This document shows positions 7,347 through 24,464 of a DNA stretch of 64,000 nt, piece by piece. A program made the position numbers and the translations under genes. Numbering within the stretch: position 1 is the stretch's first letter; each line of letters starts with the position of its first letter. The stretch is taken from contig CM126202.1 in NCBI GenBank assembly GCA_052327205.1, positions 262,322,001-262,386,000 of the forward strand, in the 5' to 3' direction. Source of the stretch: Somniosus microcephalus. Lineage: Eukaryota. The notes beneath the pieces are model-generated. The model saw only the letters and a list, made by a program, of their open reading frames with translations, made no database searches and had not been told where the DNA came from.

Positions 7347-8066
7347 AACTAATAAAGGAATTACAATCTGAGCTCATGACTACACAACAATGCTGCTGGT
7401 GTTGCTCAGATTTTACATGCTGACTCTACAAAATGAATCATGCCATATACCTAAACTACACTGAGACACAATACTATAATCTGCACGGAGAGAAATGATC
7501 ACAGCGTATTTAGTGGAGGTGTTCCAGTTACATTGGATGTTGTTAGCAGTGCAACCCACCACTAAACTCTGACACACACATGATGAATGAATCTCATGGC
7601 ACAAGGAGGGATACAGAGGGTCAAATGATGCCAATTCAGTTTCATTTTCACAATTTATCAGAATACGGTCTGCAAGCATGAAACCAATCCAGAAGGCAGG
7701 CCTGCTTTTCACTGGCACCAACTCAACACTGAAATCTAACTGGGTTATACGGCATCCCAGATCAGGCTGTTCTGATACAATCTGATCATCACACAACAGG
7801 AAAAACAGCAAGGCACTGACATTTTTTCATCTCTATGAAAAAAAACTTTTCAAAAGGCAGCATAAATTTCTTTTAACTGCCAATTGCACAACATATTTGT
7901 ATAAGCAGCCAGGTTAATGCATGATTTACTAGAACTATTCCTCAATCAGCCCCATTCTCCAATTGATTCTCCTCCTATGTTTAGTATGCTCTTGATTTGA
8001 TTAAAAAAGGGGCTCTGCTGCCTTCGAGTCCTCGACGAGACATCCTATTTTCATGAAGCTACTCAC

Positions 8067-8283
8067 GGAATATTGGAGAGATGTAGGGTGGACGACGGAG
8101 GGAAAATATTCTGGAAATTCTTGGACCCTGGTTTCTTGAAGCGATGAAGTGGGGAGCTGCTGTAGTCCTTGGTCAGACCCTGGTCTTCCTGTCCTTCCCG
8201 AGGAAGTTGAACCATCTGATGCTTTGACAAAGTCACGCGTAATACCCGGCCATATACCTTCTGCCCATTAAGATGGCTCATGG
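8067..8283 (-). CDS. PTBP3: PTBP3 exon, 217 nt ([22 protein letters not shown]...STLHLSNIP)
   Basis: ccttag acceptor, gtgagt donor; RRM3 end, linker and RRM4 start. Confidence 0.97.
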
Positions 8284-8589
8284 CTAAGGAGAAAAGAACA
8301 TTTGTACTTGTAAGTCAACATGTAGAAAATTCAAGTATTCTGAAAGTGACTGCACCCTTGCATCATTTCTCTAATCAAGAGTACAGGCAAGTGATCTGCT
8401 CCCAGGCATCAAACATTTTATTCAACTCGAGAACAGATCCCCACTTATTGTAATGGATTTTTGAAACATTTTTACCAGAAATCTTTGATATAAACTGAAC
8501 GCATCAATACATTCATCTATATTTTGATTTGCTAGTTGCTACCTATAGTGGGAGGAAGGAATGGAACTTGCATTTATATAGCACCTTTT

Positions 8590-9000
8590 GCCTTGGTTGG
8601 TAAAGTCAGTCACCCTGACCACAGGACCCCCAAATTTAATTCACTGCTCCTACCTTATCTATTCAAAATGCAGGGGATGACTTGCACAGTGTGAAAAGAT
8701 AGAGAAAACATGGCTGATTTGATCTGAAATGATCTTAGCCAGGGCAGCAATTAAGGCATTACTATTGCCCTTGCAGCTCCCAGATTAGGGAAGAGAACAC
8801 TGGCAAAAGTTGGTGTTCGCAAATGTTACCTAGTGACCTCTGTTGGATGTGCACGTGTCTGGAGGCTAAGTGAAGACACAACTGACCTCAGCTGTGGTGT
8901 GCAGGTCAAATAGCCTACCAACAATGTCAAGGTTTACCCATCAACTGTGGGCACTGAGGGGATCCAGTTTTTTTTGGGGGTCATACCCCAATGAGTGAGA
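8590..9000 (+). mobile_element. old unclassified SINE-like repeat; related copies near 12860-13200(-), 26150-26370(+), 37800-38060(-), 45200-45440(-), 47720-48110(+)
   Basis: Shared degenerate core (cagtgac...ctggaaagtgcatg...cagctgtg...aatagcct), seen by eye. Confidence 0.5.
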
Positions 9001-9107
9001 GAGCAAGAAATAAGGGGGGGGGGGGGGGGAAGGGAGGAGAACTGGCAAGCAACACAAATTGTTAACTATTCAGAAAATATATTAATAAATAAGTTCATGA
9101 ACCTTAC

Positions 9108-9200
9108 CCAGCTGAGCTTGGTTTGCATCTGCCATCTGTATTAAGGCATTTTCTTTTTTATTGAACAAGATCTTCACACGATGTACATCACCATAAACTC
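9108..9200 (-). CDS. PTBP3: PTBP3 exon, 93 nt ([30 protein letters not shown])
   Basis: ctgaag acceptor, gtaagg donor; RRM3. Confidence 0.96.
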
Positions 9201-9535
9201 CTTCAGGATGATCAAAAATAAAAAGTTTCAATTTCACCAGAAGTATGAGACAGAGATTCAGTGACAATTTAAAACAAAGCAGAGTATAGACAGGAGACTG
9301 AATCAGAGCAGGAAGAAAGGAAAATAAATGTTTTAATTATTTAAACACTTAAAAAAAGACGTGCACATATTAACAAATGCTACACTGCAAAAATAAAATG
9401 TTTCATGCATTTTAATATTTAACAAAATTCATTGATAGCATAGATGTGAGATTCAGTTGAATGAAGCACCAAAGTACCAACTTAAAACTACAACAAAAAA
9501 TTCATAGTAAAATAGCAGTGGAAATGACAACATAC

Positions 9536-9569
9536 CAAAGAGGATGAACAGCCAGTGAGGTGAAACCTT
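9536..9569 (-). CDS. PTBP3: PTBP3 34-nt exon (KVSPHWLFILFG), homolog of PTBP1 exon 11 / PTBP2 exon 10
   Basis: ctacag acceptor, gtatgt donor; needed to keep the frame between 12418 and 9200; LFILFG motif. Confidence 0.95.
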
Positions 9570-9571
9570 CT

Positions 9572-9888
9572 GTAGTAGGGGGAACAAAACAAGTCAGCAC
9601 AAGATGGACCGGAGACAAACATCATCAAATCGCCCATATCGAAGAGTGTTTCAGCATTACAGTTGAAGGCCAGTTTGATCCAGAGAGAATTCGATTTGTT
9701 CACAAAAATAAAGTATAGAAGGTTCAAATGCAGTAGAAGTGTCGTTTTGGGGAAGTTTGTTGATATGGCAAATATTGGGAAAAATGATGGAATAGCGAAG
9801 CAGGACAGTGAGGGGAAAAGAAAGAAACATTATAAAGTCAGTAAAATAAATGTTCAAAACGTTTTGTTAAAAAATATAGGTATTTCAC
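9572..9888 (-). promoter_or_regulatory. 317-nt AG-exclusion zone with distant branch point TACTGAC (9837-9843) and long pyrimidine tract
   Basis: No CT dinucleotide on the plus strand between 9572 and 9888 (read base by base); branch consensus directly followed by a U/C tract. Confidence 0.8.
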
Positions 9889-11053
9889 CTATCCCATTAT
9901 TTTCATCCCTCCACAGGCACCTCTGTGGATGCAATCAACACCTTTCCTTAGTCAACCCATTAAAAGACACACTAAAATGGTGCAAAAATGGCCCAACCCA
10001 GTTGCTGCTCTTTGCTTTCACTCTAGGCACAACCAAATTTCACCATGTAGCAGAAATCTAAAGGCCAGACAGGTGTGTGTATAATATACCTCATGCATTT
10101 AATGTGTTTTTATTTGTGTTCCATTCAGAAAAACTGCCGCTGACGAAAACAGTAGGTAGCATATTTTTGAAGACTAGAATAATGCTAGTGAGCCATTATT
10201 CTGCAAAAAGATTACCAGGGTATGAGACAAATCTACATATAATAGAAATATGGGAAACACCACTTCTCTCGCCACCTACCACACAAGACATGTTGGGCAG
10301 AAATGCTTCATATCTCAAAAGCCTAATAATGCTATTCTGGCACATGAAGATAGATATTTTTGATTGCAGTTGCTTCCCTCAGGAGTATTAAAATTAAACA
10401 ACTAGAGTTTTTCTAATATAATGCAAACCAGACACTGAATAAAAAGTTTGTTGACCACAATAATTTTACTGAACTATCAATTTTGGTGGGACATATTTGG
10501 TTGAAATGACTACAGTGCAGAAAGTGCATATGGACATATTACATGAAATCAATTTCCTTTAAACTGTTCAGCCACATAATATATGCTTATGGACATTCAA
10601 TCTGAGTGTTGTAGAAAAATTGAATGCATGGATTAGAACAAATGATCGGTTTGTGAATACGCAATTGTTTTACGAATGGTATGGTTTCATTTAAATTTCA
10701 AAATAGAAAAAAGACAGTAATGCAGCAAATCTTTGTTATTACAAACTTGCATAGACCAGTTAAACAGATTGTTGTTGCTTTGAGCATACACTTTATTATG
10801 TTTGACCTCTTTTTCCAAACGGAATGCATCCTCTGTCAAGCCCAAGGGAAATAGCTACAGTACTATAAAAAGGAAGCTTGTAACAACAAAGGCTAATTAC
10901 AGTTAGGCTCGAGTGTAATGGGAAGCTAGCACACTGTAGAATGGAAATAAAAATTGCATGTACCATGGATGTAACATACATCAAAACTCCAAAGCCAGAA
11001 AATATCACAGAATATGACACAAGCATGCACACACTTGGGTAATGACCACTTAC

Positions 11054-11087
11054 TGAAGAGAAGGAGCATGAAGGGGCTCAACCACAG
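11054..11087 (-). CDS. candidate alternative 34-nt exon (LWLSPFMLLLF-R), mutually exclusive or poison
   Basis: ctgtag acceptor, strong gtaagt donor, same length and phase as 9536-9569, no stop codon, TGCATG 24 nt downstream; weak pyrimidine tract. Confidence 0.4.
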
Positions 11088-12049
11088 CTACAGTTATTTA
11101 TGGAATAACCAGGAATTTTCAATGGTAATCTACATCATTAGCTTGGGGGGAAGTTATTTATTACAGAATCTTAATGTTTATTTCTAGTAAACTCTTAACC
11201 TCAGTTTCCTTTTATTTATTTTTTAAAAAATTCAGGATCAGTAAATAAGTGAGAAAAAAAACTTAACTTTACTTGTATTAAAGAGATTCACTAATGTAAG
11301 CATTATGCTACTGGGTGGTCTACAATCAACATGGGAATTCCCCAATAGCATTAAGACCAGAGAAGAAAGATCCATTTTCAGAAGGCATTAAATACTTATA
11401 TTTGACTGGCATTCTGGCACCACATTCACAGACTAAACTTTCCTGTATACAGTTGCCAGTCCCTTGGGTTACTCTGATTGTGGTGCTTTGAGCTGTTGGT
11501 CTGGCAGTTGATTTGCATTGTGTATGCTCCAGTATGACACAAGGAGCTGTATAATGCTCCAAAATCCATTGGGCACCAGGACTTGGATCAATGCCACCAT
11601 TATACTTGGCCACCAGCAAGAGCCCAATGCCTTCGGTCAATAGATGATGTGCTATTAGGCACCTAGAACCAGTGTATACCTGCTAATTATGTCCATACAC
11701 TAGATAACCTGGCTTCCTCTGGACTGCAGAGTATTACCACTGTAAATGTGTGCAATTACCTAAGGCATTGGGACATCATGCATCACACACATTTGCATAC
11801 AGTACTGTGCCACAAATTAGAGGAAGGTGGGCACTCTACAAATAATTTGGTCAGCACCAGAGCCACATTCAGAACATGGACGTGAGGCACTGGAACTTGT
11901 AATGGTTAATGGTAACTTGTGAGCTCAAAGCTTGGAGCCAAAATGAGACTATACTTCAGCAGCCCACATAGCACATTACTATAATATGTACTAAAGGCAG
12001 AGTCTCAAGTATGTGCCAACATAGCCTTGTATCTCCTTCTGTTTGAGAA

Positions 12050-12146
12050 CACAACGTAAGAAATAGGAGCAGGAGTAAGAGTAGGCCATGCGGCCCCTCA
12101 AGCCTGCTCCGCCATTCAATAAGATCATGGCTGATATTTGACCTCA
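12050..12146 (-). mobile_element. CR1 LINE 3' tail
   Basis: Near-identical to 21695-21770 (agcctgctccgccattcaataagatcatggctgat). Confidence 0.85.
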
Positions 12147-12417
12147 ATGATTCAACCAGAGAACCCATTAATCCTCAGCTCCTAAGCATTGTGTAGATTT
12201 TATTTTGTATTAATCGGAGGCTTTGGAAGGCTGGTTTCTGTATACTGGGATGTTACAGATTACTGGCTGTACATGCGCAAATCTAAATCACTGCCTTCCC
12301 AAAAATCATAAAGGTACTTAAGAGCTCAAATATGTATATAACAATGTATTCTATGAAAAAGTGGAGTAGTAGTAGGCAGGACTCGGAGACATTGCAGTTC
12401 TTCATGATATCACCAAC

Positions 12418-12554
12418 CTCAGGGTTTAGGTTGCTGACCAGCAGGACAGAGTTTACTGCTGGGCCAACACCATGCATTGCTAGACGACCACCAACTGCAC
12501 CATGTGGAAGGCCAAGATGCCCGAGCCCTCCAGGGATTCCTTGAACAGACAGAC
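12418..12554 (-). CDS. PTBP3: PTBP3 exon, 137 nt (GLSVQGIPGGLGHLGLPHGAVGGRLAMHGVGPAVNSVLLVSNLNPE)
   Basis: ctctag acceptor, gttggt donor; linker plus RRM3 beta1. Confidence 0.94.
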
Positions 12555-13301
12555 CTAGAGACAGTAAAGACTTGGACGTTAACTTCCTTCATACATTGAA
12601 CCATTCCCTTTAGAAATTTAAAGACGACTGTCGGAGATGGCCAGAATATATGTAAATACCACAAGGGCAATTACATTTTTAAAAATTTAACAATTCAGAA
12701 AGGTTTCACAGGGTCCAGTCACTAGATACTAAAAATATATAGATGTTAAATTAAAACCACAGTGCAGCATGCATGACCACTATATTTACAACACATACGC
12801 TTTTATGTTCTCTCCCCAACACTAATTCTCCATGCTTTCTTCCTTGCTCTCTCCTGAAGCGGTTGACCCTCATTGGAATGGGTACCCTCTAGCACCTTGC
12901 ACATAGGAGCAGGCAACGAGCACTGAAGGCTTTTTACTGTGGGGAAGTGAGGGGGGAAAACACATCGAAAGCCAATGTTGTCCCCAGCATGCACTTTCCA
13001 GTAGGAGATCAATGGATAATGATCGGAAGAGGGTGACAATGCCCATGCTCAAGTCCAATGAGCTACCACGATCTCCCTGTCGCCACCGCCCCCCACCCAC
13101 AAGTTAAGGTCAGCTAACTTCGTGCACACTGAAGATTGACTTGGGATCTCCTGGTTCACACAGCTGTTACACGCTTATCATATGAACCACTGATGGAATT
13201 CCTTTATTTAAAAAGGAATTCCAAACCAACTCTAGTACAACAATCTGCTAAAGCATTAAAAAAAATCTGACATTACAAGTGACAGTCCCGAGCACGCTAA
13301 C

Positions 13302-13376
13302 CTGCAGTTTGCGGAAAGCCAAGAGCAGGGCCAAATCCACCAGGCCCATAGGGATTGGAGATGATACCCGGTGCAC
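13302..13376 (-). CDS. PTBP3: PTBP3 75-nt linker exon (GAPGIISNPYGPGGFGPALGFPQTA), PTBP1 exon 9 equivalent
   Basis: tgatag acceptor, gttagc donor; symmetric phase 1-1. Confidence 0.93.
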
Positions 13377-16204
13377 CTATCAAAAGAAAAACAGAAATGT
13401 TCATTTAATATAAAGTTAGTTATTCAACCACATTTCCTACTCTCCCTCCCAAAAGTGCAGTTTTTTTTTGTTCGAATCAATGCCTCACTGATGTTCAAAA
13501 AAATACTTGGGTTTGAATTCCCCCCTGGCGCAATCACTAGTTGTGCTTGGCTATTTTTAAGCATGTGCAAACAAGTGTTGCCCACTACTAATATGCCTAG
13601 CAGCTCGAAGAGTAACAATTTGAGGATTTATTTAATATGCAAAATACCATGAGTAGGGTGATGTAGAAAGTTCACTTGAGTGTAGCAAGGAGTTTTGCAC
13701 TCGATGAGATGTAAATTTACATTGCATCTGGCCTATGGTGAACCTGCCTTCAGAGCAGTTATTGGTAACACTAGATGTAAACAGTAGAAAAACTCATTCC
13801 AAAGCACCAACATTCTTCACTTTGATAAGCACACAAACTCACTCCAAAAATAAGGTTTTTAAACTGATACCACCTTGGACAATCCTTGTCCTTATCCCCG
13901 CAGATGCCAACTTGCGTGCAATATTGAGATAGCGGCACTGCCAGACCCGGTAGCTGAGTGTCTCAGGCAGTTTTCCCCTCAGTTCAGGTGTACAGCCCCA
14001 GGTAAAGGGTCAGGTCACGGGGGACATAACTGCAGGTTTGTGAGCAGGTAACTTTTCATGGGGTGGGAATAAAAACAATTGATTCTATATGGATTGCTGT
14101 GCTGAGTTTACATTATGTCATCAGGATTGCCACTGAGCTTGCAGTTGCTTCCCAAATCCCTTAAGTCGGTATTCCCTTTGTCCTTTTATTGAGATTTGTT
14201 CACAGATGCAAAATATTCTTTTGCTACACTTCAATGCTTTGCAAGAGTTTCTTTGACGGCTTTGATAAGTGAAGAAAGCAATAGAACTAGTGACCACTGA
14301 TGTACAAATTTACCAATAACTCAAGTATAAGCAGGTACCTCCAATCAATTGTCCATAACTAAAAACTGTAATCATGAAATATCCAATTATGCTTATGATG
14401 AAAATGAAGTACACCAAAAATATGTATAAAATCATAAACACAATGGAAAACCTACAAAACTCACAAATTTGATGTGTGTTTGGTTTGCTGTTAATACATG
14501 AACTGACTTCTCTGACTAATAAACCACCTAAGGAGTGAGATTGTCTAAATCGGAGTTCCTTCCAGTATTAAACTATTGACCACCTATGGATGATCTGGGC
14601 TGCTGACTGGTCCAGCAAGGTTATCCTAGGCAAATAATCCTTGGGGTAATCAGCAGCCCCCCCCCCCATCCTATCAAAAGATCCTGCCCAAAGGCTCTTG
14701 TGGCAATTTGGAAATTAAGTTCTCAATTGCCACCCTACATAAACCCTTTGTGGAATACAACAAATTTTCTGTTGAAAACAAATCTCAGACTGTACATATT
14801 TAAAAGCCCTGTAAATATAAAAACACCAAACTCTGGTCTTCCAAAAATGACACATTCCCTAAATATTCTTGTGTCACAAAACTCCTTCAGTGACAGGAAA
14901 AACTGACAGTTGCAAATTCCCAAAATGGGGGCCCAAACATGTTTTAGTCCCCTTTGTCCTATATCTTTTGTAAAAGGATATGACTAATTTATGGCATTTA
15001 TGCTGCAATCACATTCTCGCCACAATCTCACAATGGTACCTCTTGTTAAGACAGCCTTTTTCACTTAGGATATTAAACACTGGTTCAAAGAACCCATTCT
15101 TTGTAGTCATTGATGCATTGAAGCTTGAGTAATAAAAGAACTTTACACTTACTGTCCCTATTTGAACTATGGAGTGAATTGGATATGTGCCCTAGATCAA
15201 ACGGTCTAGTATGGAAATGCTACAGCCACCAATGCTCAAAAAAGCAGATACGCCAACCATTAAACAAGTCTTTGCCATGTGGATCATTTATATTGGTATC
15301 AAACAAGTAAAACGAAACAATGCATGGTTTTTCAGATTTGTCACATTGAACAGAATTGTGCAGTCCCTCAAGACACCAGAGATAGCTTTCGACACACCTG
15401 AAATGTCTCTGGGGAACAGTACAATGACTTAACCGAACCGATATTCTCTTTTTACCAGGGTAATTTTTTAAAAAGCCACAATTGTGTGAAGACTGCAGAC
15501 ATTTGGTGGTACCTGGAGTGTGCCCACTAGTGCTATTCTGGGTAAAGTAAACACAAACCTATCCACTAATATGCAATTAATCCAAATACTACCCTTAAGT
15601 TAGAATATCTTAGCTGATGTGAAGCACAGTGGCAGTTGATAGTAGCCAAGCTGTGGTGCGTAATGTCATTTCTGTGGCAACAGCCTTTGGCTGTCTAGAA
15701 AACCTCAACTAATTGGAGTTGAATGTTTCTTTTGGTAAAAGATAACTTCCTACCAGCCAATCCATACAACAGATGTTAAGTCAATTTAAATCTACTTTTT
15801 AAAAAAACCTTTGAACTCTTTAATTTAGTCCCCAGGATCCCCTGTACAGTACAATAGCAAAATAAAGTTTAAAAAAATATGTTCTAATGTCTCCAACAGG
15901 CACATCAAGTTTACTAACGATGAATTTTCCTTCTGGCCAGTTCATCGAAATTGTAACCTTTCAAGTCTCCTTATCCAGCCAAAAGAATAGCATCATCTGT
16001 GCCAGCTCCAAGCCACAACATTGCAGATACAGCTTCTGAATACACGGCGCCATTGACCTGCTTAGAAAATAGTGCAGTTCAGAGGTTTGCGAGCTGGCAC
16101 AGACACTTCATGATCCACCAGGATGACTTGAATGACCCACAAGATAGAGTTAACAATCTAGCGCAGTTTAAAGTTTAGTTAGCGGACAGCTGGGCAGATT
16201 CATT

Positions 16205-21688: not shown

Positions 21689-23107
21689 ATAAGAACATAA
21701 GAAATAGGAGCAGGAGTAGGCCAATCGGCCCCTCGAGCCTGCTCCGCCATTCAATAAGATCATGGCTGATCTGATCCTAACCGCCAATCCACTATCACAG
21801 AACCATCTCCTGAATCTAACAGAATTAGACACACGAAATAGGAGCAGGATCAGGCTACACGGCCCCTGGGCCCGCTCCGCTACCCACAGGGCCATGACCG
21901 ATCCGAACCTAGACTCATGTCCAAATTCCTGCCCGCTCCCCGTAACCCTTAATTCCCTTTATTTCTAGGAAACTGTCTATTTCTGTTTTAAATTTATGTA
22001 ATGATGTAGCTTCTACAGCTTTTTGGGCAGCATATTCCATGGACCTACCACCCTCTGAGTGAAGTAGTTCCTCCTCATCTCAGTTTTGAAAGAGCAGCCC
22101 CTTATTCTAAGACTATGCCCCCTAGTTCTAGTTTCACCCATCATCGGGAACATCTTCCCCGCATCCACCCGATCCAACCCCTTCACAATCTTATATGTTT
22201 CAATAAGATCGCCTCTCATTCTTCTGAAATCCAATGAGTAGAGTCCCAATCTACTCAACCTCTCCTCATATGTCCATCCCCTCATCTCCGGGATTAACCG
22301 AGTGAACCTTCTTTGTACTGACTCGAGAGCAAGTATGTCCTTTCTTAAGTATGGACACCAAAACTGTACGCAGTATTCCAGGTGCGGTCTCACCAATACC
22401 TTGTACAACTGAAGCAATACCTCCCTATTTTTATATTCTATCCCCCTAGCAATGAAAGCCAACATTCCATTGGCCTTCTTAATCACTTGCTGCACCTGCA
22501 TACTAACCTTTGGAGTTTCGTGCACCAGGACCCCCAGATCCCTTTGTGCTTCAGTACTTTCCAGTTTCTTGCCATTAAGATAATAACTTGCTCTACGATT
22601 TTTCCTGCCAAAGTGCATAACCTCACACTTTCCAGTATTGTATTCCATCTGCCAAATCTCTGCCCACTTACTTAGCCTGTCTATGTCCCCTTGCAGGTTT
22701 TTTATGTCCTCCTCACTCACTACTTTCCCTCCCATCTTAGTATCATCTGCAAACTTGGATATGTTACACTCGGTCCCCTCCTCCAAATCGTTAATATAGA
22801 TTGGAAAGAGTTGGGGACCCAGCACTGACCCCTGTGGAACACCACTAGTTACTGATTGCCAGTCCGAGAATGAACCATTTATCCCAACTCTCTGCTTTCT
22901 GTTAGATAGCCAATCCTCTATCCATGCCAGAATATTACCCCCAATCCCGTGATTTTTTATCTTAAGCAATAATCTTTTGTGTGGCACCTTGTCAAATGCC
23001 TTTTGGAAGTCTAAATACACTACGTCCACTGGTTCCCCTTTATCCACCCTATATGTTACTTCCTCAAAGAACTCCAGCAAATTTGTCAAACATGACTTCC
23101 CCTTCAT
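21689..23107 (-). mobile_element. young 5'-truncated CR1 LINE (reverse transcriptase C-terminal half plus 3'UTR)
   Basis: About 365 uninterrupted codons with [29 protein letters not shown] and RPHLEYCVQFW motifs. Confidence 0.95.
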
Positions 23108-24464
23108 ATTTGCAAACACCCCTGATGGAAGGCTTTGTGCTCGAGGGTCCTTCCAGACACTGCTGGGGACCTGGGTGGGAGAATGCAATTCAGCAACTTG
23201 ATGGATGCCCTGGCTGCATGTGCATTCTGCAGCGAGGATAAGACCAAATCCCATTGTCTATATCTGCAGTCCCAGAGGCTACTACTGCAGACTCACATCC
23301 ATGTTAGATCATAACCTGCATCCCAGCAGACGACCAAGGGGAGGATTTAGTATAACAATTAAAAGTTAGAACTGGATACGGAGTTGAAATACACAAGAGT
23401 TTTAGCGGTAGGAAAACAACAGTCAGCTGGTTTAAAGCAACGAAGGCAAGCAGCAGGAACATGAGAATTAACAGAAAGGCATGCACTTCCTTTGGGTCAA
23501 AAACAGGAATATTTAAGGAGGTGTGATCAGGGGAAACTTGGGTTTCAGTGAAAATGAGGGGGGGCAGGAAATTGGAGAGAATAAAGATTTGAGGAGATAC
23601 TACCAATACTGCAGAAGAACAGGTTGAAGGAGGATGCAATGGATATGGTATTGGGCATATATTGATAATAATGGACTGTCAGCAAAAACTCCAACGATGC
23701 ACTGGGGAAACAATGGCAATTCTCCCAAGGATTAATAAAAATATATTTTAAAAACAGATTTTATGTATACCATCAACAGTAGACAGGGAAGCGCAGAGCA
23801 TTATGTAGCATGCTGGTTTCGACAACCATGCTGCATTTAAAACAGGTTTTTATTTTAAATTAATTTAGATGGTCTGCTAAATCAGCCTCTATATTCTCTT
23901 AGGAGATCTACGACAAAATAAGGTGCTGGAGGAAAATACGGGGACAGAGGGAGGGGGGAAATTTCCTTTGGAACAAAACAAAAAGCAAAATACTACAAAT
24001 CTGAAACAAAAACAGAAACACTCACCATGTCAGGCATCTGTGGAGAGAATAGACAAGTTAAAAAGCATTTCAAAAAGGAAGAGAACAGGGGAAGGAAACA
24101 CACCACACACAGGAAAATAAATAGAATAACTAATAATGTGCTTAAGGGGAGAATAGAAGATGTTGAAATGGCAGTGATATTACCAGGAGACAATGATGAG
24201 AGAGCAAAAAAGACAAGTACGAGACACAGAACGCCTGAATAGCTTGGAGGTGGGTTACAGGTAGGTAGAAAACGAGCATAAAAAGCTGGCAAAGCAGGTG
24301 CAAATGCCCAGCAGCCTGGTAAAGGAGAAGAAAGCAGGTTGGCACAAGCCATGCAGACTAGACTACCTTGCCAGCATGGTGTTCAGACACAGGCCCCCTA
24401 CCCCAAGCTCCAACCAGCTTCTTTCCTCACCCATCCACAACACTCGGCAGCCCTCTGTCTTATT

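Follow-up and report, generated by a model that had tools for sequence, protein, structure and literature searches.

A candidate 34-nt cryptic exon in an intron of shark PTBP3, likely a decayed duplicate of the neighbouring regulated exon

We analysed a 64,000-nt stretch of Somniosus microcephalus DNA (hereafter, the window) and found, within an intron of PTBP3, a candidate 34-nt cryptic exon that probably arose as a duplicate of the canonical 34-nt exon lying downstream of it in the same gene. Overall, the feature is real and a duplicate origin is likely; a decoy role is a candidate function only, and use as a coding switch is unlikely. Its sequence anatomy, the in-register match of its 3' half and donor flank to the canonical exon, and unspliced sense RNA in one raw run are directly established. 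The coordinates of all features are given in Table 1.

Table 1. Features of the PTBP3 locus around the candidate exon, in the order of transcription (window coordinates).
Feature	Position	Strand	Basis or remark
Upstream coding exon, ends in phase 0	12418..12554	minus	
Host intron, 2848 nt	9570..12417	minus	
Weak acceptor TAG of the candidate; CAG in organism E; poor pyrimidine tract	11088..11094	minus	positions -7 to -1 same as canonical acceptor at 5/7
Candidate 34-nt cryptic exon, likely a decayed duplicate of the canonical exon	11054..11087	minus	sequence comparison
Second reading: 3' half of candidate as pyrimidine tract (18/20) before CAG at 11055-11053	11053..11076	minus	
GTAAGT donor of the candidate and its flank, 13/16 same as canonical flank	11038..11053	minus	unchanged, as far as listed, in organisms C, D and E
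RBFOX motif in TGTGCATG context	11024..11031	minus	once in the homologous intron of PTBP1 (-992) and PTBP2 (-541)
Possible 73-nt stop-first cryptic exon, in-frame TAA first, donor GTATGT at 10979	10980..11052	minus	predicted
CCAWGGT word, 55 nt past the RBFOX motif	10962..10968	minus	motif picked after seeing the alignments
AG exclusion zone before the canonical exon, 317 nt	9572..9888	minus	longest of 3849 AG gaps on the strand, next 135
Canonical 34-nt PTBP3 exon, equivalent to PTBP1 exon 11 / PTBP2 exon 10, start of RRM3	9536..9569	minus	RNA junctions and peptide
Downstream coding exon, site of the stop for frameshifted forms	9108..9200	minus	

The host gene was identified as PTBP3 by its 31 best protein matches, all of them elasmobranch (30 named PTBP3 and one hypothetical). 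The search of the same genome yielded three PTB loci at E <= 0.001 (four candidates scored), and the two of these that are separate from the locus of the window read as PTBP2 and PTBP1. The window exons are most similar to those of Pristiophorus (95.4%), with all others at 92.6% or below; a metagenome scan for further shark loci returned none. The 34-nt exon 2 of PTBP3 was looked for in the window and not located. Two repeats were observed along the way: at about 12050-12150 the host intron holds a high-copy short repeat, presumably SINE-like, that is covered to very high depth by reads in both orientations, and a PTBP3 intron carries at 22016-23257, on the minus strand, an open frame of about 410 residues that resembles a LINE reverse transcriptase, presumably of a CR1-like LINE.

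The anatomy of the candidate had been described exactly in the earlier note on this DNA: on the minus strand, ctgtag is followed by 34 nt (11087-11054) and gtaagt, a TGCATG lies at 11029-11024, 24 nt past the donor, and the block agrees with the canonical exon (9569-9536) at 15/34 positions, 10 of them within the last 15 nt. Swapping the candidate for the canonical exon preserves the frame, the two being equal in length and phase and the candidate having no stop; including both leads to ...WSLW-stop early in the next exon. The note's caveat about a weak tract also holds, as the acceptor has 11 pyrimidines in 20 positions and the window median is 10.

How often such a block is expected by chance depends on how strictly it is defined. 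The minus strand of the window holds no YAG-N34-GTAAGT other than the candidate, which is one among 222 AG-N34-GT; the chance expectation is 0.015 per intron of host-intron length. With any GTRAG donor the expectation is 0.13, and it rises to 0.53 if lengths of 31, 34, 37 and 40 nt are all permitted. The 15/34 identity is weak on its own (shuffle P 0.04), being reached by 7 of 425 AG-34-GT pseudo-exons and by 1.7% of all 34-mers. Similarly, the candidate peptide scores 4-5 against the canonical one by BLOSUM62 (rank 5 of 425 pseudo-exons), compared with 27-36 for the true paralogs. On the first-noted features alone (identity, peptide and acceptor), the case for the block is modest. A 130-nt span here offers two acceptor motifs and as many as three donor motifs. 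Three further ideas were tried and rejected: a repeat origin (the block has a single match in its own genome, in a search that skips common words), RNA structure at the block (z -0.65), and clustering of TGCATG (seven in 4.1 kb, scan-corrected P 0.13).

The argument for duplication comes largely from a feature absent from the earlier note, the downstream flank. Intron positions +1 to +16 of the candidate match those of the canonical exon at 13/16, and besides the canonical flank itself no other site does so in 206,610 positions (the window plus four paralog stretches, both strands). When the canonical exon plus 16 nt was used as the query over the same positions, the candidate (28 of 50) ranked right after the three true paralog exons (self 50, PTBP2 36, PTBP1 34). 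Outside the donor consensus, at +7 to +16, 8/10 bases match the canonical flank, a level reached by 4 of 5961 GTR donors, the canonical and candidate donors among them; when the end point is left free, 15 of 5960 donors reach the flank-match score. A score of 28/50 is expected 1.2 times by chance across the searched set and 0.017 times per host-size intron, where the AG is additionally in register, so that support for duplication derives from the match lying in the same intron with its AG in register and not from the score alone. The flank lends a twin origin independent support, and by our judgement that origin is about twice as likely as not.

Identity to the canonical exon is unevenly distributed along the candidate, with 5/19 over nt 1-19 and 10/15 over nt 20-34; comparing 5/19 with 23/31 from nt 20 onward including the flank gives a Fisher P of 0.0013, for a breakpoint chosen afterwards. 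Such unevenness is expected if splice-proximal bases were retained and coding ones were not. Upstream of the candidate, positions -25 to -4 show no similarity to the canonical exon's (6/22), and together with the first 19 nt this limits the related-looking parts to the 3' half, the donor flank and positions -7 to -1. The flank similarity was found after several other features had been inspected, and local alignments of flank plus exon (P 0.002-0.09), which include the selected exon, were not counted as evidence. The PTBP1 and PTBP2 introns of the same genome yielded no matching twin exon. Taken together, we regard it as fairly probable, from these comparisons, that the candidate is a duplicate of the canonical exon.

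The same bases allow a second reading, in which the candidate's 3' half would serve as the pyrimidine tract of an overlapping CAG acceptor (Table 1). This tract is the best in the host intron, in the top 0.4% of 1896 YAG sites, and exceeds both that of the canonical acceptor (17/20) and those of all eight real acceptors compared. If the upstream exon were joined to the acceptor CAG at 11053 (12418-12417, 11053-11052), a GTAAGT donor would be rebuilt one base inside that exon, and this would constitute a putative off-by-one recursive site.

Downstream of the candidate, the RBFOX motif may belong to an older element. In PTBP1 and PTBP2 of the same genome, CCAWGGT follows TGTGCATG by 63 and 69 nt, respectively, and among 91 TGCATG sites only four have CCAWGGT at 40-100 nt, three of these being the PTB paralog sites. 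Similarity to the paralogs downstream of TGCATG gave P 0.02 for PTBP1 and 0.07 for PTBP2 in composition shuffles, and P 0.21 and 0.23 once the first 10 nt were removed. Because the motif was chosen post hoc and the shuffles are weak, the combination TGTGCATG...CCAWGGT is no more than suggestive of an element predating the paralog duplications. In the available parts of two studies, RBFOX2 acts on PTBP2 exon 10, mostly via downstream sites (PMC3967051, PMC8455679). More TGCATG motifs were seen at 9404-9409, 10097, 11782, 12476, 12773 and 12993; one of these follows the canonical donor by 126 nt, and in PTBP1 as well as in PTBP2 two copies stand about as far downstream.

We compared relatives over 10945-11225 using four runs, three of which gave one long piece each and one (X19) none; word shares put the divergence at roughly 4.4% for organism C and 6.1% for organism E. 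The donor, its flank and TGCATG had no listed difference in organisms C, D and E. Organism E retains the 34-nt length and its acceptor reads CAG, and the acceptor of organism D is probably, not certainly, intact; differences near contig ends were left unlisted (two in X10, one in X11 and four in X15). Over the 43 nt of exon and splice sites, organism E has three changes against an expectation of 2.6, and over 277 nt it has 13 events against an expectation of 17 (P 0.2); the probability that the 14 signal bases survive neutrally is 0.41. Organisms D and E have no difference listed anywhere in 11017-11076 (at 6.1% divergence, P 0.02), for an intron in which runs of about 84 unchanged nt are expected somewhere. 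At about 4-6% divergence, conservation of the block is thus not above background and proves little. Two indels follow TGCATG at distances of 7 and 20 nt, and at one of the two the window's own species is itself variable. Same-species run X4 differs from the window at 10716, 10734 and 11016 by a 2-nt deletion, one substitution and a 5-nt insertion; this insertion is common to X4 and organisms C, D and E, and the window allele is therefore likely a derived deletion.

Four same-species RNA runs were aligned over 8000-13500, including X4 as contigs and X21 and X22 as raw reads. The X4 contigs contain the canonical exon joints at depths of 107 and 165, and one X4 contig spans the candidate unspliced at depth 7.6; unspliced contigs cross the candidate donor in X4 and, among the runs of relatives, in X10 and X11. 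In X22, sense-strand depth of 2.6-5.8 was present in 7 of the host intron's 14 non-repeat bins, compared with none of 8 in the introns next to it (P 0.02, for bins that are not independent). X21 had no depth on the candidate, and its canonical downstream joint was covered by four reads from one start. These data suggest partial, sample-dependent retention of the host intron, seen in a single one of the two raw runs; the X22 intron reads are few and could also be slowly spliced pre-mRNA.

No junction was listed at 11087, 11054, 11052 or 10979 in eight runs (X19 having no alignment), at a raw depth of about 2-10x, and the junctions by which the earlier note proposed to recognise use of the exon (12418>11087, 11054>9200 and 11054>9569) accordingly did not appear. 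This is weak evidence, because raw depth was low, thresholds were strict and contigs drop rare forms: a joint was listed only with three reads from two starts, and the loose ends among the rows listed were dominated by the repeat near 12050-12150, so that one or two junction reads could be hidden. Skipping of the canonical exon (12418>9200) was likewise not listed in the same-species runs; a substrate of nonsense-mediated decay (NMD) would be rare in untreated RNA. Contig starts at 11091 (X11) and 11070 (X10), beyond which upstream cover ends, were considered as traces of splicing and rejected, the two positions being different. Splicing into 11087 predicts a start at 11089, and the offset of 2 in X11 misfits the contig-end logic that suits the canonical exon.

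The earlier note had taken the downstream exon to be the PTB autoregulatory exon without naming the paralog. Human PTBP3 is reported to be without the AG-free zone and distant-branch-point motif of PTBP1/2, and in the available parts of the literature no ESTs show skipping of its exon 10, whose branch point lies 21 nt upstream (PMC1940037, PMC1431707, PMC3967051, PMC8455679); the autoregulatory premise for the shark exon therefore required a separate check. In the accessible portion of PMC1431707, human PTB exon 11 has an AG-free zone of 381 and a UACUGAC at -351 verified by mutation, and from this source we took the marks of a distant-branch-point exon. The canonical shark PTBP3 exon has all of them: an AG exclusion longer than 150 nt, UACUGAC near its 5' end (TACTGAC at 9843-9837, with the A at -269) and an adjacent U-rich tract. 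A second branch-like word lies at -25. In the shark, the PTBP1 and PTBP2 exons are similarly built, with 328 AG-free nt and TACTGAC at -299, and 396 AG-free nt and TACTGAC at -360, respectively; alignment of the AG-free zone to the paralogs is modest (P 0.017 and 0.068). Shark PTBP3 thus retains the PTBP1/2 layout reported absent from human PTBP3, and we infer that its distant branch point is in use. The AG-free zone and motif, with the possible RBFOX element, suggest that the common ancestor of the three paralogs already had the feedback exon, which human PTBP3 then lost.

The earlier note had also proposed the candidate as a mutually exclusive coding exon, and here the protein evidence points the other way. 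We picked 96 cartilaginous-fish proteins, comprising 93 PTBP3 models from 23 named species plus two further records, and three chimaera PTBP1 models. The candidate peptide occurs in 0/93 PTBP3 models and the canonical peptide in 93/93, for isoform lists that may be incomplete (Pristiophorus X3 is outside the set) and species that may lack the block. The swap peptide would break 5 of 7 columns that are invariant across 23/23 distinct PTB exon peptides, altering P4, L7, F8, I9 and G12. Both exonic differences listed in relatives are nonsynonymous (W>R in organism E, S>I in D and E), with no silent change. The last five candidate codons keep a T at the second position in 5/5 cases (P 0.058), so that the helix would remain hydrophobic. 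A search for a read-through peptide turned up no candidate, and a search with the upstream exon for truncated isoforms gave none in 33 matches (32 already in the set); both are weak negatives. The proposal of a twin is thus strengthened as to origin, by the flank, and loses its coding half: judged by these comparisons, the candidate is unlikely to code for protein.

We consider the best reading to be a decayed tandem duplicate that may act as a non-coding decoy or poison cassette, a reading we hold tentatively. We infer each of its functional steps. U1 would bind the consensus-type GTAAGT donor, the weak acceptor at 11087 would compete with the overlapping strong tract and CAG at 11053, and the host intron, engaged but not removed, would be retained. 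Alternatively, the cassette would rarely be included beside the canonical exon, and the resulting frameshift is predicted to trigger NMD. Both cassette use and retention would be tuned through the RBFOX site 24 nt past the donor, and retention and poison inclusion alike would lower PTBP3 output. This reading is weakened because the distant branch point explains retention more simply and because retention is absent in X21. All weights given here are judgements, not computed values, and an inert remnant and chance jointly weigh about the same as the decoy. The former, a rather unlikely account by itself, holds that a local duplication of the exon 3' half and donor has decayed neutrally, with retention caused by the canonical exon's distant branch point. 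It shares the homology signal with the decoy and fits the background substitution rate of exon and sites, the two amino-acid-changing differences in close relatives and the lack of listed candidate junctions, and the AG-free zone with TACTGAC offers it an independent cause of slow splicing, as described in the available part of PMC1431707. It accounts less well for an exact AG-to-GT register retained while nt 1-19 are at random identity, and for the unchanged run at 11017-11076, whose P of 0.02 is to be read against the longer runs expected somewhere in the intron. Under a chance origin, which we consider unlikely, the block is a pseudo-exon whose pyrimidine tract happens to look like the canonical exon's pyrimidine-rich end, and an older RBFOX element common to all three PTB paralogs happens to lie next to it. 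The frequency of 15/34 matches among 34-mers and pseudo-exons and the 0.13 expected AG-34-GTRAG blocks per such intron agree with this, and TGTGCATG...CCAWGGT occurs in PTBP1 and PTBP2 with no twin exon upstream, so TGCATG need not belong to the candidate; against it stands the 8/10 match at +7 to +16, which lies outside the donor consensus, is independent of the earlier note's criteria and is matched by few donors even after end-point correction (15/5960).

Two other accounts change what the block would be for. If the working acceptor were the CAG at 11055-11053, which is improbable, the "34-nt exon" would serve as branch point and pyrimidine tract for a 73-81 nt poison exon opening with an in-frame TAA, or for an off-by-one recursive site. 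The best tract of the intron, the lack of listed differences at 11054-11076 in D and E, the absence in both of an AG at 11078-11077, and donors available at 10979 and 10963 favour it, whereas contigs of X4, X10 and X11 span both ends unbroken, two length-changing indels fall within the putative exon, and the flank match to the canonical donor is left unexplained. Very improbable is a mutually exclusive coding exon, whose RBFOX-driven use in brain or muscle would swap the start of RRM3 and escape feedback skipping. Equal length and phase, the open frame, the retained second-position T's and the likely duplicate origin speak for it, and since the tissues of the runs are not given, the right one may be unsampled; its absence from all 93 PTBP3 proteins, the five broken invariant columns, the W>R and S>I changes with no silent one, and the lack of depth in X21 on the candidate, where the canonical junction has its four reads from one start, speak against it. 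We likewise give little credence to a broader version in which a shark-lineage duplicate would have been kept as an RBFOX-gated switch between being ignored, holding the intron or causing decay, and forming a tissue-specific RRM3 variant that escapes feedback.

The decoy reading has precedents in the decoy exons described in the available part of PMC6097662, which sit in large retained introns, often compete for splice sites and yield junctions mainly after NMD inhibition; those of SF3B1 are 29-56 nt long. Like the decoys of SF3B1 intron 4, OGT and ARGLU1, the candidate is a short cryptic cassette with competing sites in an intron of over 1 kb of a splicing-factor gene, and the host intron may be partly retained; junctions of such decoys are rare in untreated cells (PMC6097662). 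Conservation of the published decoys extends to reptiles or fish, and junctions and minigenes have demonstrated them, whereas the shark candidate is known from its sequence and its conservation has been seen at 4-6% divergence only, not above background. The accessible part of that study describes no decoy that arose by copying the regulated exon next to it. The shark PTBP3 exon shares with PTBP1 exon 11 and PTBP2 exon 10 its 34-nt length, a long AG-free zone bearing TACTGAC close to the 5' end of the zone, and flanking introns that both carry TGCATG; the available parts of the literature on that system mention no second exon of 34 nt (PMC1940037, PMC1431707, PMC3967051, PMC8455679).

True duplicated-exon swaps retain key residues and change conservatively (accessible part of PMC9741552), and the candidate does not retain such residues. 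Pairs such as SCN-alpha 5a/5b were found by protein similarity, according to the portions available (PMC9741552, PMC12772994). The shark pair resembles SCN-alpha 5a/5b in equal length and phase within one gene, a nearby TGCATG and an apparent paralog-shared intronic element, for which PMC12772994, as far as its available part goes, offers the closest parallel, RBFOX elements at duplicated exons that paralogs share; unlike SCN-alpha, it scores only 4-5 by BLOSUM62 and its likeness lies mainly at the donor flank. The papers listed highest in our literature searches include no report of a duplicated 34-nt PTB exon or of shark PTBP3 splicing, and the accessible part of a preprint on PTBP evolution mentions sharks just for annotation gaps and codon use (10.1101/2020.08.30.274191). 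Feedback splicing in the PTB family is a standard model, hence the interest of the setting if the candidate is functional: a regulatory exon copied into a decoy for its own parent would be a route by which decoy or poison exons originate. If inert, the candidate is an ordinary decayed copy or pseudo-exon.

The canonical exon itself yielded a further observation. Its peptide (9536-9569), the same in 93/93 cartilaginous-fish PTBP3 proteins, has a tryptophan at position 6 that is absent from the bony-vertebrate peptides compared, in which positions 1-3, 5 and 6 are variable. The invariance of the cartilaginous-fish peptide may reflect constraint at the nucleotide level.
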